A stretch of DNA of 42,411 nucleotides from the NCBI GenBank assembly GCA_030639555.1, contig DAOWCM010000002.1:1-42411 (forward strand). The letters are read 5' to 3'. The notes beneath the pieces were generated by a model, which ran no database searches, had not been told where the DNA came from, and saw nothing but the letters and a program-made list of their open reading frames with translations. This document shows, piece after piece, positions 18,911-42,411 of this stretch (its first letter is position 1; every line of letters begins with the position of its first letter). A program made the translations under genes and the position numbers. The stretch is from Candidatus Eiseniibacteriota bacterium (GTDB lineage Bacteria; Joyebacterota; Joyebacteria; Joyebacterales; Joyebacteraceae).

Positions 18911-19284
18911 CGTCGCCCCGTCTTTCGCTCGCGCGCACGGAGCGCGCTCTCGAGCATCGATTCGAGGCCGCGTACGACGGCTCGCGCGTGCCTCCGCGCC
19001 TCCTCAAAATTCTCGGCCACTCGGGCATCGGCCCAACTCTCGAACGCGGGATACTTCGTACACGGCGTCCAGCTACGGTTATAGAGCCGAAGAGACACGG
19101 GACAGTACGAGCACTGCGAACCGCCGCGCTTCTGCTGTCGCTGAGTAGCAGAGCGACAGAGCGGGCAAGGGGCGTCGTTGCCGGCTTGTTTGTGGCGAGC
19201 GGTCGCGTTCCAATCTTTGATGGTGCGACGGATCGCGATCTCCTGCGCCCGCGTGATGATCGGCATCGGTCGTGCGCGCGTCAT
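18907..19284 (-). CDS. Hypothetical Cys-containing protein (125 aa)
   Basis: GGAGGAG RBS and an ATGA overlap with the downstream gene. CPLC and CSYC pairs suggest zinc binding. Confidence 0.5.
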   Translation of the reverse strand: MTRARPMPIITRAQEIAIRRTIKDWNATARHKQAGNDAPCPLCRSATQRQQKRGGSQCSYCPVSLRLYNRSWTPCTKYPAFESWADARVAENFEEARRHARAVVRGLESMLESALRARERKTGRR

Positions 19285-19299
19285 CTACTCCTCCCCCTC

Positions 19300-19340
19300 C
19301 CCGCCGGCTGGGGCGGGTTAGGTCAGCCACGGGGGTGGCT
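19300..19340 (-). terminator. Two short GC-rich hairpins directly after the 19340..20398 gene (possible weak terminator or RNA-stability element)
   Basis: AGCCAC-GGGG-GTGGCT (19325-19340, touching the stop codon) and CCCGCC-N6-GGCGGG (19300-19317). Neither is followed by a U-tract. Confidence 0.25.
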
Positions 19341-20398
19341 CACTCGGTGTCCACTTGAATAAACACATCTCTCGTGTATGTCATCGGCATAAACCACGGA
19401 TCCTCGCTGGTCGAACCGCAGCCGGGACTGAGCAGATCGTCCTCCGGATCGTACATCCCGCACCACCCGACCCAGAGATCCAGTGCCGAGGCATCAGGAG
19501 TCTCGCTCATCTTGATCGGCAGATTGACGAGATCCGCAAATGTGACCGAGAACGTGGCTTCGTCGAGTAGGTCCTCTGACGAAAGACCGTCCAGAATCAC
19601 CATGTAATCCTCCCTGGTAGGGGCGCCGCCTACCCTGTAGGCTTCGCACTCCCAGTCCGCGGGAACATTGGCAGAGATCCAGTCGGAGCAGTCGAAGCGA
19701 TTGTAATAATCGGTATCGTCCAGGGCTGATATCGTTATGCCTAAATCGTGGTTCTCCCCAAGGGCCCTCGTGTAGACCGTCATCCTGATTTTGGCGATGC
19801 CATCCTCAGGCCAGGTACCATGTGGCGGCATCCAGGCTTGTACTGATATGTCCTTCGTGTTACCAGCCGAGATACCATGGCCGTGCTCCAAGGACGTCAT
19901 CAAAAATGCTGCATGGTTGCCTATTTCTACACACTCCTTTGCGTTCCCACAGGCCGCCTTGGATCCATCTGCGCACTGAGCACCTGGGCTTTGTGTTTCA
20001 TTGAACATTCCTTGGAAGATCGAGTAATCGGACGCCTCGACCTTACCAATGCAGTCGTGGTTAGCCTGATCGTCGTAGTCGGCATGTTTCCTGCCAAGGT
20101 TGAATGTGGCCTTGAAGGTAGAGAAGTCGGTCGGACCGACTTTGCCGACGTTATCGAAGTTGGCATCGCAGGCATTGCCGTATCCGTCGCTGTCGCTGTC
20201 CCCCTGTTCCCAGTTGAAGTCGTCGGGACAGTTATCGCTGACGTCATCGTTCGGGTCATCCTCGACCCACGTAATGGTGGCGCTGGGATCATGGAAAGAA
20301 TCCCCGTCTGTGTCGCCCAGATAGAAATCGGCCTGGACTATAGTAACGCCCAGTGCCAGCAGAATGGCGCATGCTAGTGCAATCACGTTATACCTCAT
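19340..20398 (-). CDS. Secreted protein (352 aa) with thrombospondin-type-3/dockerin-like Ca-binding repeats; low-GC moron-like gene
   Basis: Signal peptide MRYNVIALACAILLALGVTIVQA. DNCPDDFNWEQGDSDSDGYGNACD is TSP3-like. DANFDNVGKVGPTDFSTFKATF and NHDCIGKVEASDYSIFQGMF are dockerin/EF-hand-like. AGGAG RBS 9 nt upstream. GC is visibly lower than in the flanks. Confidence 0.7.
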   Translation of the reverse strand: MRYNVIALACAILLALGVTIVQADFYLGDTDGDSFHDPSATITWVEDDPNDDVSDNCPDDFNWEQGDSDSDGYGNACDANFDNVGKVGPTDFSTFKATFNLGRKHADYDDQANHDCIGKVEASDYSIFQGMFNETQSPGAQCADGSKAACGNAKECVEIGNHAAFLMTSLEHGHGISAGNTKDISVQAWMPPHGTWPEDGIAKIRMTVYTRALGENHDLGITISALDDTDYYNRFDCSDWISANVPADWECEAYRVGGAPTREDYMVILDGLSSEDLLDEATFSVTFADLVNLPIKMSETPDASALDLWVGWCGMYDPEDDLLSPGCGSTSEDPWFMPMTYTRDVFIQVDTE

Positions 20399-20404
20399 GG
20401 TGTG

Positions 20405-20656
20405 TTACTCCTTGTTGTTGGTGGTGTCTTCGTCCCCCAGTGCGCAAATCTCTTGGGCCAACGTGATCATGTCGTCCTCGTCGAGCCACTTGGAGTTTGC
20501 AACATAGGCCGCACACCTCTCCTTCATCTCCCGGCGGGCGGTGGCGAGGGCGGCTTGGTGGTCGGTGTATTTGACACAACTACCGTTTCGATGCGGCTCC
20601 ATTCTGGCATAATGATCGCCATCGTATTCCAGTCTGTACCGCTGGATGTCAGCCAT
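20405..20656 (-). CDS. Hypothetical protein (83 aa)
   Basis: ORF with an ATGGCTGA overlap to the upstream gene. No recognisable motif. Confidence 0.5.
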   Translation of the reverse strand: MADIQRYRLEYDGDHYARMEPHRNGSCVKYTDHQAALATARREMKERCAAYVANSKWLDEDDMITLAQEICALGDEDTTNNKE

Positions 20657-21311
20657 CCCTGTTCCCCTCTGCCATGATGGCGTCGATGGCGGTTGTTATC
20701 TCATCGATGCGCATCTTGACTTGGCGGTCGCCCTCTGCCGAGCCGGTGCCGTACATCGTGGGGCATAAACCATCTGGAACCTCGGTAGCCCACGGTGGCA
20801 CGAACTGATGTAGGTAGTGCGCACGGTTGAACCACCGCTCCCCATCCTTCTTGGCCACCGCCAGCTTCTTTTCCAGTTCTGCCGACTGCATCATCGATAG
20901 CACTATTATACCGCTCGCGTAGCGCAGATTGTTTTGCGCCTCTTCACGGTCCATGGCATCGATTCCATCGCTAGTGAGCTCGCAGAGGTTTTTTACTGTG
21001 ACGAGCTTCTGCTGCGCTGTCGCAAGTTCTCCGCTGAGCCGTTCGATCTCGGCGCATCCTTCAGGGTTTCTCGCTTGGCGATAGACGATCTCGGTTTCTC
21101 CCCAGTCGTCTTCGCCAACCGCATCACGGGCGCTTGCCTCCACTTGCTCGTGTGTCTCGAATGGTCCACACCAGCCCTCGTCCGGGTATTCGGAGTACGC
21201 CCACCACCAGGGATCCGATGCACAGCGTTCGCGGAGGCGGGCGTTCTCCTCTAGAACACGTTGGTGTTCCGCAATCCCTACCCACTGGCCGCTTCCAGAG
21301 TGTTCACCCAT
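20649..21311 (-). CDS. Hypothetical protein (220 aa)
   Basis: The internal ATG at 21311 (MGEHSGSGQW...) overlaps the upstream stop (ATGGGTGA). The N-terminal extension of ORF 20649..21734 is Arg/Ser-rich junk that overlaps other genes. Confidence 0.5.
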   Translation of the reverse strand: MGEHSGSGQWVGIAEHQRVLEENARLRERCASDPWWWAYSEYPDEGWCGPFETHEQVEASARDAVGEDDWGETEIVYRQARNPEGCAEIERLSGELATAQQKLVTVKNLCELTSDGIDAMDREEAQNNLRYASGIIVLSMMQSAELEKKLAVAKKDGERWFNRAHYLHQFVPPWATEVPDGLCPTMYGTGSAEGDRQVKMRIDEITTAIDAIMAEGNRDG

Positions 21312-26077: not shown

Positions 26078-26098
26078 CTTGATCGATAACCTCCAAGA

Positions 26099-26134
26099 GG
26101 CCGCGCGGCGGAGGACCAGTCCCGCCGCGCGGCC
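26099..26134 (-). other. Perfect 13-bp GC-rich stem-loop (possible attenuator, terminator or processing site)
   Basis: ggccgcgcggcgg (26099-26111), a 10-nt loop, then ccgccgcgcggcc (26122-26134). Neither strand has a clear U-tract. Confidence 0.5.
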
Positions 26135-27373: not shown

Positions 27374-28008
27374 CACCACGTCTCCCCTCTGGTAGCTTCC
27401 AGACTCGCCGCAAACAGCGCCTCCTCTTTCGCCGCCAGCCGCACCTCGACGCGTCTCTGTGCGAGCATAAACTCGGGCGGCAGTTCGATCCCCTCGCGCC
27501 GGCACCACTCGACCCACCGATCGGCCATGTCCGCCGGCCAGCGCTGGAGGTCCGATCCCGACCAGACGACGCGGCGCCTCCGGAACCGCGCGGCCATCTC
27601 TTGGCGCGCGCCGAACCCGTTCTGCGCCCCAATGAGATGGAGGAACACTTGGACGAACTCCTGCCCGTGGGAGGCGCAGAAGCGCGACCAGCGGCGGCGT
27701 ACCATGATCAGATGCGCGAGCTCGTGGAGTACGATCTGCTCGTGGCGCGCCCAGCGCGGGACGTGGAGGGCGAAGGCGCCTACGGTTCGCGCCCGCCTGG
27801 AGCCACGGCCGTCGTGTACCTCTATCTCCGCCAGATCGAGCAGAGGATGAGGCCGCACGAGCCAGTCCTTCGCCATGACCTCCGTGCAGTACCGCTGGAC
27901 AGCGGCCAGCGACTCGAAGGGACGGCCCTTCTCGCCGTCGTCCTCGGCGTCGTAGACGCGCTCCTTCTGCCAATCGCGTAGGGGCTTGACGCCATTCGGG
28001 AGCGTCAT
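27373..28008 (-). CDS. SprT-like / HExxH zinc metallopeptidase-like protein (211 aa)
   Basis: HEQIVLHELAHLIMV...CASHGQEFVQVF gives HExxH plus a downstream His, as in SprT-type domains. ATGA overlaps at both ends. Confidence 0.55.
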   Translation of the reverse strand: MTLPNGVKPLRDWQKERVYDAEDDGEKGRPFESLAAVQRYCTEVMAKDWLVRPHPLLDLAEIEVHDGRGSRRARTVGAFALHVPRWARHEQIVLHELAHLIMVRRRWSRFCASHGQEFVQVFLHLIGAQNGFGARQEMAARFRRRRVVWSGSDLQRWPADMADRWVEWCRREGIELPPEFMLAQRRVEVRLAAKEEALFAASLEATRGETW

Positions 28009-28355
28009 CGCTGCTTCCTTTCGGCGGCATGCCACGTGTAGTGGCATTTCGGACACAGCCACTCAACATCGAGTAGATGCTCCGGCGTATAGCTGCGGTG
28101 ATGCCCGTGAATCCGGCTCCGGGCCGGCTGTCCGCAGTTTTCACACAGCTCAGGGCGGATCAGCGTACCCGCCCGAACCGCACTGTGAACCGCGTATGCG
28201 GCTCGCGCGCGCTTGGCCCGGCTCGCGAGCACCCGCTGATCGATGCATTCTTGACAGAAACGCGCCTGCGGGGTGTGGGTCCCCCATCGGCCACACGATT
28301 CACAGTGGCGCCCTGCCCAGTTCCCGCTCTCCAATTGTCCGATCTCCGTCGCCAT
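28005..28355 (-). CDS. Zinc-finger / HNH-like protein (116 aa), first gene of the early-left operon
   Basis: The internal ATG at 28355 starts MATEIGQLESGNW. CESCG...CQEC and CENCG...HGHHRSYTPEHLLDVEWLCPKCHYTWH resemble phage HNH-type (CxxC...HH...WLCxxCH) modules. Confidence 0.55.
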   Translation of the reverse strand: MATEIGQLESGNWAGRHCESCGRWGTHTPQARFCQECIDQRVLASRAKRARAAYAVHSAVRAGTLIRPELCENCGQPARSRIHGHHRSYTPEHLLDVEWLCPKCHYTWHAAERKQR

Positions 28356-28362
28356 GTGCGGA

Positions 28363-28390
28363 AATATACCATCACCTTCGGACAGCGCAA
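28363..28390 (-). promoter_or_regulatory. Candidate sigma70-like promoter for the early-left operon (TTGCGC-16 nt-TATATT), with the -10 element 7 nt from the ATG (leaderless)
   Basis: Reverse complement of 28353-28390 reads TTGCGCtgtccgaaggtgatggTATATTtccgcacATG. Confidence 0.5.
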
Positions 28391-28435
28391 GGCAAATCTT
28401 GACCGGATTGTGCGAAATTCTTACGGCGGATCCTG

Positions 28436-28463
28436 TTGCGTGGCTTCTCATCCGGTGTATAAT
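28436..28463 (+). promoter_or_regulatory. Candidate sigma70-like promoter for the early-right operon (TTGCGT-16 nt-TATAAT), with the -10 element 7 nt from the ATG (leaderless)
   Basis: 28436-28473 reads TTGCGTggcttctcatccggtgTATAATcccgcacATG. There is no room for a Shine-Dalgarno leader. Confidence 0.55.
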
Positions 28464-28470
28464 CCCGCAC

Positions 28471-28689
28471 ATGACGTCTCGGGAAGCGGTGAAGCAAATC
28501 AGAGAGGCTGCCGACCTGACGCAAGATGCGTTCGGAGCGAGCATCGATATCAGCGGTCGGCGTGTGTGCCACGTGGAACGTGAGGGCGGCACCTTCCGCC
28601 CGGCGGTACTCGTGAAGCTCTGCGAGAAATACCGAAAGGAAATGGCGTCCCTTGGGATTACTCCGCTCGACTTCTATCGATCAGACTGA
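28471..28689 (+). CDS. Small XRE/Cro-type helix-turn-helix regulator (72 aa)
   Basis: MTSREAVKQIREAADLTQDAFGASIDISGRRVCHVEREGG is a classic HTH_3-like layout (LTQ...G.S...v...E.G). Confidence 0.7.
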   Translation: MTSREAVKQIREAADLTQDAFGASIDISGRRVCHVEREGGTFRPAVLVKLCEKYRKEMASLGITPLDFYRSD

Positions 28690-31388: not shown

Positions 31389-31417
31389 TCCCCGGTAATC
31401 CCCCCGACATCTGAGAA

Positions 31418-31517
31418 ATACCGGGGGTCCTTAACGTGTGGATTCTGTGAAGGTTTTTGCTGTCTGTCAGTGAGACCCCCGGTATCTCGAAGGTCAAGTG
31501 GGGAAAATACCGGGGGT
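31418..31517. promoter_or_regulatory. ATACCGGGGGT repeat set (two direct copies, one inverted) in the 297-bp intergenic region before the late/packaging genes
   Basis: ataccgggggtc at 31418-31429, gacccccggtat (inverted) at 31474-31485, ataccgggggt at 31507-31517. A degenerate cccggtaat lies at 31391-31399. The region is locally AT-richer. Confidence 0.6.
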
Positions 31518-31685
31518 TTCGGTCTGATCCCTGCGTATTTATTCCCCCACACTCTGCGTTTCCTGTACAAGTTCGCGAGAATCTGTATCCTCCTCACACG
31601 AGATCCCCTCTGGTAGGCCCCGGGGGAGCGTACCTGACCGCCCTCCGGGGTCATCTGGCGGGGCCACGCACAGGAGGGGGACGCC

Positions 31686-42103: not shown

Positions 42104-42411
42104 TCGAGATGCGCGAACATCCGGGGAACCGGGAGGTCTGGATCAAGCTCTCGCGGCTGAACCAGGCTACCCGCGAGGGGATCCGCCACGGGTTCTTCGC
42201 GCTCGGCAAGGCGCTCAAGCGCGAGGCGAACCGGGCGATCCTGAAGCGGCCTCGGCATGGCGAGGTCTACCGGAAGCGCTATGCGAGCGGAGCGGTGCGC
42301 TACCACGCCGCCTCGCTCCCGTATGAGACACACGCGAACTGGAGCGGCAAGCTCCGCAAGTCGATCGGATGGGTCGTCGCCGGGTTCTCGAAGCGCTACT
42401 TCGGCTACGGC
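42100..42411 (+). CDS. HK97 gp10-like tail-completion/neck protein, 5' portion (continues at 142..333 after the 141-bp overlap)
   Basis: The ATG at 42100 overlaps the upstream stop (ATGA). Sequence: MIEMREHPGNREVWIKLSRLNQATREGIRHGFFALGKALKREANRAILK... The frame runs off the window end into the terminal repeat. Confidence 0.65.
   Translation, partial: MIEMREHPGNREVWIKLSRLNQATREGIRHGFFALGKALKREANRAILKRPRHGEVYRKRYASGAVRYHAASLPYETHANWSGKLRKSIGWVVAGFSKRYFGYG
42271..42411. repeat. Terminal direct repeat, copy 2 (identical to 1..141)
   Basis: See copy 1. Confidence 0.95.

Follow-up and report, generated by a model that had tools for sequence, protein, structure and literature searches.

Predicted back-to-back promoters and a probably leaderless regulator gene in the divergent gap of an orphan phage genome

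Results and Discussion

Two promoter-like sites face outward from a 115-bp gap

We examined the 115-bp gap between two diverging genes in a phage sequence of 42,411 nucleotides recovered from a metagenome (ENA ERZ23498405), the whole of which is referred to here as the window. Leftward from the gap runs a gene for an HNH endonuclease and rightward a gene for a small helix-turn-helix (HTH) protein, each with a promoter-like site directly before its start codon (P_L and P_R, respectively), and three related 11-mers (Repeats A, B, and C) lie over and between these sites. From left to right, the features are as follows.

28005-28355, minus strand: first gene of the leftward arm, encoding a 116-aa zinc-ribbon and HNH endonuclease (phrog_2340 endonuclease, E 1.8e-15; HGHH...CPKCH motif)
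28332-28347, minus strand: rival start of the HNH gene, GGAG (28347-28344), 9 nt, TTG (28334-28332), in frame at codon 8
28362-28353, minus strand: P_L discriminator tccgcac and ATG (28355-28353), 7 nt from -10 to ATG, predicted transcription start A28355
28355-28365, plus strand: Repeat A, TGTGCGGAAAT, overlapping P_L from the 3' end of its -10 through +1
28368-28363, minus strand: P_L -10 hexamer TATATT, 16-nt spacer from the -35
28390-28385, minus strand: P_L -35 hexamer TTGCGC, read in the window
28409-28419, plus strand: Repeat B, TGTGCGAAATT, at the gap centre (midpoint of the two ATGs, 28413), its first T 62 nt before the start A of the HTH gene
28436-28441, plus strand: P_R -35 hexamer TTGCGT, read in the window
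28458-28463, plus strand: P_R -10 hexamer TATAAT, 16-nt spacer from the -35; counting both strands, the window has a single further TATAAT
28461-28471, minus strand: Repeat C, TGTGCGGGATT, overlapping P_R from the 3' end of its -10 through +1
28464-28473, plus strand: P_R discriminator cccgcac and ATG (28471-28473), 7 nt from -10 to ATG, predicted transcription start at A28471 or 1-2 nt before
28471-28689, plus strand: first gene of the rightward arm, encoding a 72-aa Xre/Cro-type HTH protein (profile, fold, 27 homologues)

The two -35 hexamers are 45 bp apart and the predicted transcription starts 116 bp apart. These promoter sequences, their coordinates, and the length of the gap had been described in a first-pass annotation of the window, and all of them agree with the window as read here. 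The same annotation had pointed to a 9-bp inverted repeat, CCGCACATG, which is exact at 28353-28361 (minus strand) and 28465-28473 (plus strand) and occurs nowhere else in the window. The repeat extends to 20 nt at 85% complementarity, and the 16-nt spacers of the two promoters are unrelated, the likeness being limited to the -35, the -10, the discriminator, and the ATG. A role of the inverted repeat as a replication origin or recombination site was considered and rejected, as the similarity is confined to promoter elements and the same elements are kept as promoters in related loci.

This combination of elements is rare in the genome. The pattern TTGCGY-N16-TATAWT matches the window twice, both times in the gap, compared with a mean of 0.007 over 300 dinucleotide-preserving shuffles of the window, none of which contains two or more. 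Counting both strands, the entire window has only four TATAWT sites, and a relaxed scan for TTGnnn-N16-18-TAnnnT returns seven matches in 42 kb, of which only P_L and P_R are intergenic. The HNH and HTH starts also stand apart from the other gene starts: a TAnnnT hexamer lies 4-10 nt upstream of these two starts alone among 53, and they lack the GGAG-type motif that is present between -18 and -4 at 43 of the 53, in line with the earlier remark that an obvious ribosome-binding site is the rule elsewhere in this genome. No unusually unstructured 5' end is found for either predicted message (z-scores +0.3 and +1.2), a result that is uninformative.

Judged by their sequence, P_L and P_R are very probably promoters of the housekeeping-sigma type. 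Both have a TTGnnn element, a spacer of 16-18 nt, and a TAnnnT element, both sit in noncoding DNA and face a transcription unit, and in relatives the elements are kept while the spacers diverge. The -35 hexamers resemble TTGCGA, the optimal -35 for mycobacterial RNA polymerase (PMC1616969); this likeness is a weak hint about the host and not evidence.

A full match to the 38-nt module, TTGCGC-16-TATAAT-CCCGCAC-ATG, is present in a 342-kb bacterial contig (Ga0335085_10000074; L009, 1012-1170). There it heads a 41-aa open reading frame (ORF) that adjoins ftsK, has no Shine-Dalgarno motif, and encodes a signal peptide and a histidine-rich tail; from its sequence this ORF is probably a leaderless gene of host type. 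We did not use the contig as evidence for the host, a chance match being plausible (~0.4 expected, by estimate).

The rightward gene encodes a predicted Xre/Cro-type regulator

Searched alone, the 72-aa protein gives weak, sub-threshold matches to HTH_3 and HTH_31. An exhaustive representative search returns 27 homologues, and the profile of the resulting family matches lambda-repressor-like, C.BclI, HipB, and 434 and P22 repressor chains. An AlphaFold2 model made with the alignment has a predicted local distance difference test score (pLDDT) of 95.1 and displays the canonical Xre helical bundle of five to six helices, with C.BclI, a Deinococcus Xre regulator, P22 c2, C.AhdI, and 434 Cro as its best fold matches; C.EcoT38IS is also among the best fold and profile matches. 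A single-sequence AlphaFold2 model (pLDDT 73), which contained a spurious beta-hairpin and gave no meaningful PDB match, was discarded. Going by the modelled fold, the protein is a genuine Xre/Cro-type HTH protein, which bears out the identity first proposed for the gene at 28471.

The methionine aligned with M1 is conserved in the homologues, four of which have longer gene calls that place it internally. In the model, helix 1 spans residues 3-13 with pLDDT >90, so that a start at the GTG of codon 7 (Val7) would truncate the fold. Both the conserved methionine and the position of helix 1 support ATG 28471 as the true N-terminus. Because this methionine is conserved, helix 1 begins at residue 3, and a TAnnnT element lies 6-9 nt before the methionine without a Shine-Dalgarno motif, the HTH gene is very probably leaderless.

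The rightward promoter is conserved in related loci

Relatives of the HTH gene were reached through the exhaustive representative search and contig look-ups, in which 10 homologues led to DNA for 9 distinct loci and one further look-up gave gene calls only. Eight of the nine related metagenomic loci show the same arrangement, that is, a TTGnnn-like element, 16-17 nt, TAnnnT, and 6-9 nt to the conserved methionine, with no Shine-Dalgarno motif:

L010: -35 TTGCGC, spacer 16, -10 TAGAAT, 8 nt from -10 to ATG
L011: -35 TTGCGC, spacer 16, -10 TATCCT, 8 nt from -10 to ATG
L012: -35 TTGCTG, spacer 17, -10 TAGACT, 7 nt (tccgcac) from -10 to ATG
L013: -35 TTGCGC, spacer 17, -10 TAGAAT, 7 nt from -10 to ATG
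L014: -35 TAGCGC, spacer 16, -10 TAGAAT, 9 nt from -10 to ATG
L015: -35 TTGACG, spacer 16, -10 TATGGT, 6 nt from -10 to ATG
L016: -35 TTGCAC, spacer 17, -10 TAAGCT, 6 nt from -10 to ATG
L018: -35 TTGACT, spacer 17, -10 TACGGT, 7 nt from -10 to ATG

The control region of L021 is identical to that of L018, and the ninth locus, L017, which holds a distant homologue at 51% GC, has no clear promoter in the 100 nt upstream. We estimate the chance of such an arrangement at ~0.0025 per locus in random sequence of 62% GC; since the spacers have diverged, its presence in eight of nine loci is decisive despite their shared ancestry. From these alignments we conclude that P_R is conserved in this phage group, together with an HTH message predicted to be leaderless or to carry a leader of at most 1-3 nt.

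Two homologues (P0013 and P0015) have over-long gene calls of 84 aa, in which the TTG of the -35 hexamer, being in frame, is taken as the start codon (L011 428-466 and L012 241-279) and 12 false codons are added. This systematic annotation error for a leaderless family is the artefact to be expected where there is no ribosome-binding site. By tblastn, the first leftward and first downstream genes of the relatives show no similarity to proteins of the window; the HTH gene and the control region therefore appear to travel as a unit.

A more distant relative, L018 (1-10216; ERZ27250004 k141_2373997, 38.9 kb), has the same two-arm layout, in which 102 bp separate a putatively leaderless HTH gene from a leftward operon whose message is leadered. 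Its leftward arm includes a DUF3799 exonuclease and its rightward arm RusA.

The leftward promoter is conserved and meets an in-frame ATG in the window

Exactly one leftward promoter-like site is present per locus in all seven relatives with a sequenced left side, consisting of TTGCGC, TTGCGG, or TTGCAA, 16-17 nt, and TAnnnT, at the same position and in the same orientation as P_L. In L012 this site (TTGCGG-16-TATATT-TCCGCAC-A) is identical to that of the window from the -10 to +1 and continues into a 30-nt leader, and the same locus also carries TCCGCAC-ATG at P_R. The L010 site reads TAATGT-AACGCAC-A followed by ATCGACCAACCGGAGGACGAC-ATG, a leader with a Shine-Dalgarno motif. P_L and a likely transcription start at the A after CGCAC are therefore supported. 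The duplicated unit of the first-pass annotation has to be redrawn on this basis: the inverted repeat exists, but what is common with the relatives is TCCGCAC-A (TGTGCG on the other strand) and not CCGCACATG.

In the window, the predicted +1 of P_L coincides with an in-frame, stop-free ATG of the HNH gene, for which we estimate a probability of ~0.015 by chance. The in-frame extension upstream of this ATG has a third-codon-position GC content (GC3) of ~48%, compared with ~80% in genes. One gene caller reports the 116-aa form starting at the ATG and another reports no gene; the ENA record of the window has no call for it. In our estimate, it is moderately probable that the HNH gene is translated without a leader.

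The spacer of P_L contains a further shared element, [TG]CCGA[TAC], located 2-10 nt downstream of the -35 in eight of nine P_L regions including that of the window, where the rest of the spacer has diverged. It is found at 28374-28383 in the window, as well as in L010, L012, L013, L015, L016, and L018.

TGTGCG repeats are candidate operators

The first-pass annotation had proposed a TGTGCG repeat as a candidate operator, at 28355-28365 and 28409-28418 (TGTGCGAAAT); these coordinates are correct and correspond to Repeats A and B. With Repeat C included, the gap holds all three copies of the 11-mer AWT-YY-CGCAC-A (TGTGCGRRAWT in the opposite direction) that the genome contains, compared with ~0.08 expected for a motif that was defined post hoc. 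The consensus of Repeats A and C, AWTYCCGCACA, has six matches with at most one mismatch (two expected), three of which are in the gap.

Across eight control regions TGTGCG is found eight times, compared with 0.7 in shuffles, and none of 1000 shuffles reaches eight. All eight copies are in the window, L010, and L012, and their positions correspond. The distance from the first T of TGTGCG to the start A of the HTH gene is 116, 62, and 5 nt in the window, 124, 62, and 47 nt in L010, and 116 and 5 nt in L012. Thus L010 has TGTGCG at the 62-nt distance of Repeat B, and L012 has CGCACA at the position of Repeat C. The central site of L010 is a palindrome, CGCAC-N4-GTGCG. This enrichment and the matching positions across loci suggest a role in protein binding, and it is possible, though we would not yet call it probable, that the TGTGCG elements serve as operators, most simply for the adjacent HTH protein.

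A proposed bidirectional control region

Taken together, we suggest that the 115-bp gap would be the bidirectional control region of the phage genome, from which both arms diverge under two back-to-back, non-overlapping promoters recognized by the host housekeeping sigma factor, with the genes nearest the gap presumably expressed early. P_R would start at the A of ATG 28471 or 1-2 nt before it, so that the HTH regulator would be made from a leaderless mRNA. P_L would use the same -10, discriminator, and +1 module (TATATT-TCCGCAC-A), its +1 being the in-frame HNH ATG in this phage alone, and the HNH message would then probably be leaderless as well. The TGTGCG 11-mers over both starts and at -62 are predicted to be the most likely sites of the HTH protein, and both arms would then be held down by it from a single region. 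As a whole we hold this explanation to be reasonably probable. Support is strong for the two promoters and for a leaderless regulator and moderate for a leaderless HNH gene, while operator control is plausible.

The mirror-image design first proposed for the gap therefore needs qualification. Both promoters are conserved, but the layout with both messages leaderless is not: the ATG at the +1 of P_L is seen only in the window, and the leftward message is leadered in all seven relatives. Likewise, the earlier claim of two leaderless messages holds well for the HTH gene, given the eight loci and the conserved methionine, and less firmly for the HNH gene, with its rival start. The operator proposal stands to the extent that TGTGCG is enriched and matched in position in L010 and L012, and is weakened by its asymmetry and patchy occurrence.

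Alternative readings

Several observations weigh against parts of this explanation. In the relatives, the -10 of P_L is 23-40 nt from the ATG, and the intervening leader of 20-33 nt carries GGAG, GGAGG, or AAGGAG in every one of the seven. The window has a comparable arrangement in ATGGCGACGGAGATCGGACAATTG, where GGAG precedes the in-frame TTG of codon 8 by 9 nt, a workable distance; this start is a real competitor to the ATG, and the stretch resembles the L010 and L013 leaders ATCGACCAAC(C)GGAGGACG. Homologues of the HNH protein retrieved by a word-indexed search align to its C-terminal half only and leave the N-terminus uncovered, including the seven residues that a TTG start would remove. 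Hence P_L could fire at A28355 and the HNH protein be made from TTG 28334 by way of GGAG 28347-28344 and a 21-nt leader, the 5' AUG being incidental or a minor start and only the rightward message leaderless. We consider this unlikely, as an in-frame, stop-free ATG is not expected at the predicted +1 by chance, only one of 53 genes uses a TTG start, the P_L module is identical to that of P_R down to the 7-nt spacing, and a 5' AUG should be sufficient for initiation in any host that translates the conserved leaderless HTH message (PMC4633059). Our preferred explanation does assume a host competent for leaderless translation. It also places the A of each ATG as the eighth base after the -10, where the seventh is the usual start, and the A two bases upstream of the ATG could serve as the start instead, leaving a 2-nt leader. 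By comparison, it is extremely improbable that the hexamers match by chance and that transcription begins at other sites. A generic promoter scan did flag neither site, because TTGCGY agrees with TTGACA at three of six positions; yet two matches are present where 0.007 are expected, P_L and P_R are the only intergenic promoter-like sites of the genome, and their position and spacing are kept in relatives in which the surrounding sequence has diverged.

The operators are open to a different objection, namely that the promoters are real while TCCGCAC-A/TGTGCG is a preferred GC-rich discriminator and start context, or an inverted duplication of the promoter cores, with the HTH protein acting elsewhere or on other sites. 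Repeats A and C lie exactly over the 3' end of the -10, the discriminator, and +1, positions that RNA polymerase itself contacts; the three repeats of the window are asymmetric 11-mers, whereas operators of dimeric Xre proteins are typically palindromic; TGTGCG is missing from five of nine distinct control regions and was itself defined as a motif post hoc; and the bacterial contig described above has an identical TATAAT-CCCGCAC-ATG before an unrelated small gene. Against this, Repeat B lies at the exact centre of the gap, away from the promoter cores, L010 has TGTGCG at the same 62 nt and within a palindrome, the enrichment is eight over 0.7, and the promoter spacers have diverged completely while the TGTGCG elements have not. 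We therefore regard this alternative as doubtful. A classical lambda-like lysogeny switch, in which a CI-type repressor and a Cro-type protein compete over shared operators, would account for the divergent layout with a small Cro-like HTH protein on one side, for fold matches that include 434 Cro and P22 c2, and for three related sites in the gap. It is nonetheless very unlikely, since the leftward gene encodes an HNH nuclease instead of a repressor, the first leftward genes of the relatives are unrelated to each other or to any repressor, and no integrase, CI-like repressor, or excisionase is found among the non-structural arm genes when these are scanned with Pfam and PHROG; many ORFs are matchless in these scans, and this absence is unproven.

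A broader reading is that the 116-bp region together with the leaderless Xre gene would form a portable bidirectional cassette at the head of both arms throughout a clade of uncultured, high-GC phages with almost no other early genes in common. By binding TGTGCG at the two +1 positions and at -62, a single 72-aa protein would then gate transcription of the whole genome without a CI-type partner, and the HNH gene at the +1 of P_L would have replaced an ancestral Shine-Dalgarno leader and made that arm leaderless in this phage. We put this forward as an improbable but interesting extension of the explanation preferred here.

Comparison with known systems

The PRM promoter of lambda cI is a familiar precedent, with a -10 located 6 nt before the ATG, a leaderless repressor mRNA, and a back-to-back arrangement with a divergent lytic promoter. 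In contrast to the gap described here, lambda is leaderless on one side, has palindromic OR operators shared by CI and Cro, and depends on a weak, activator-dependent PRM, whereas both -10 hexamers of the window are near-consensus. The lambda case is cited in a study of the immB region of telomere phage PY54 (Hammerl et al. 2015), in which rapid amplification of cDNA ends (RACE) found a single leaderless, AUG-initial mRNA for both cI and cro (PMC4488713). Like the window as predicted here, PY54 thus has leaderless first genes on either side of a divergent control region, and strong promoters lie immediately before the start codons (PMC4488713). It differs in being a temperate phage of Yersinia with two HTH regulators (CI and Cro) and palindromic 16-bp operators, while the window, known from sequence alone, has an HNH nuclease on the leftward side, asymmetric repeats, and no lysogeny genes among those found. 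The gap is not a CI/Cro switch, given that its partner gene encodes a nuclease and that the Pfam and PHROG scans show no lysogeny functions.

The controller (C) proteins of restriction-modification (R-M) systems provide a second comparison. C.PvuII, C.AhdI, C.BclI, and C.Esp1396I are likewise all-helical HTH proteins of Xre type, ~70-80 aa in length, that head an operon; their genes are commonly leaderless, and they autoregulate through sites beside their own promoters (PMC2632904). These sites, the C-boxes, are palindromic pairs that end 17-18 nt before the start codon, and the C-gene promoters lack a good -10 (PMC2632904). P_R of the window has a consensus -10, and the position of the C-boxes is occupied by an unremarkable stretch of spacer, GGCTTCTCATCCGGTG, which shows no inverted repeat. 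Among the arm genes of the window, including those from the HTH gene to the terminase genes, Pfam and PHROG scans found no restriction or methyltransferase families. The HTH protein is therefore not an R-M controller protein: it is a small Xre-type HTH protein heading an operon, as they are, but no C-boxes and, in these scans, no R-M genes accompany it.

A similarly compact region is the 33-34 control region of mycobacteriophage BPs, where two divergent promoters (P_rep and P_R) are accompanied by repressor sites over one promoter and the start of the other (PMC4557955); it differs in its 12-bp palindromic operator and in its integration-dependent immunity (PMC4557955). Outside phages, leaderless genes of Actinobacteria and Deinococcus share with the window a TAnnnT element a few nucleotides before an ATG or GTG at which transcription also starts, and the lack of a Shine-Dalgarno motif; they differ in being host genes. 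In mycobacteria, where about a quarter of transcripts are leaderless, a 5' ATG or GTG is necessary and sufficient for leaderless initiation and a leaderless TTG fails (PMC4633059). In Deinococcus deserti, ~60% of transcripts are leaderless (PMC4007540).

These precedents also define what the window could add. The understanding of leaderless expression and phage switches does not change, because divergent switches that are leaderless on both sides are already documented. If confirmed, the gap would be a compact regulatory unit of 116 bp and a 72-aa protein from a phage lineage without cultured relatives, and it would supply a simple rule for correcting start codons in this lineage, in which the HNH gene is missed and HTH homologues are begun at the TTG of the -35. 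A conserved leaderless regulator would imply a host that translates 5'-AUG messages well, which reduces the number of host candidates. Going by the loci compared, added interest lies in a cassette that seems to be kept across otherwise unrelated early regions and in an apparent change from leadered to leaderless on one arm here; a leftward arm that is leaderless in this phage and leadered in its relatives would offer a naturally occurring test of how genes come to lose their leaders.

Genome context and additional features

The window carries an exact 141-bp direct repeat at its ends (1-141 = 42271-42411), from which it is a complete, circularly assembled phage genome of ~42.27 kb (~42,270 bp). 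According to GC3-based ORF mapping and independent gene calls, its two gene arms part at the gap and meet near 18.25 kb, and the 28355/28471 region is the sole divergent gap of the circle. The rightward arm begins with the HTH gene (28471) and continues through small genes and a terminator-like region (31389-31685) to the structural genes, which comprise the small and large terminase, portal, protease, capsid, sheath, tape measure, and Mu-like baseplate. The leftward arm contains, in order, the HNH gene (28355), an Rv0185/SprT-like metalloprotein, a DUF3799 exonuclease, an SbcC-like ATPase, and a DUF5675 protein. The window contains no tRNAs and no Rfam families.

Searches for relatives of the whole phage return little. 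GenBank phages include no relative at the DNA level in either near or distant similarity modes, IMG/VR scans with the HNH, HTH, 301-aa, and 211-aa proteins find no relatives, and an IMG/VR scan with the HTH family alignment finds nothing. A word-indexed protein search with the HTH and 211-aa proteins retrieves only the proteins themselves, and neither a pattern scan of a genome collection nor a tail-sheath scan yields a prophage relative. Terminase relatives are present at 34-44% identity only and are uninformative for the gap. The best phage protein matches are spread over phages of Arthrobacter, Gordonia, Methanothermobacter, Rhizobium, Vibrio, and Salinibacter; the phage is an orphan, and protein matches that point in several directions do not assign it to a host. 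Copies on other contigs (L001-L004) are identical to the window and thus carry no comparative information. One of these, L003 (732 bp), has unrelated low-GC DNA at 1-250 joined to the phage inside the HNH gene, near window position 28277; it was rejected as a phage variant and is taken to be an assembly chimera.

Three further features of the arms were observed. Between 31387 and 31545, an element that separates the small rightward genes from the terminase and structural genes contains four copies of TACCGGGGG(T) in alternating orientation (31389-97 inverted, 31419-28, 31475-84 inverted, and 31508-17) and exactly two copies of AAATACCGGGGGT. Its repeats are able to form alternative hairpins, the last of which is followed by a T-rich tail and is terminator-like (z-score -3.0), and the element may serve in attenuation or antitermination, bind a regulator at several sites, or take part in packaging. 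On the leftward arm, a hairpin with a perfect 14-bp GC-only stem (26098-26133, minus strand), part of a 66-nt fold at -36.6 kcal/mol, sits within a 340-bp gap between a 71-aa gene (26519-26304) and the exonuclease gene (25965), where it may act as a terminator or processing site that splits the arm. Finally, the stretch from 19000 to 21000 has a lower GC content (55-58%, compared with ~64%) and ORFs without a Pfam or PHROG match, and it may be recently acquired DNA; the other TATAAT hexamer of the window lies here, within an ORF (20910, minus strand).

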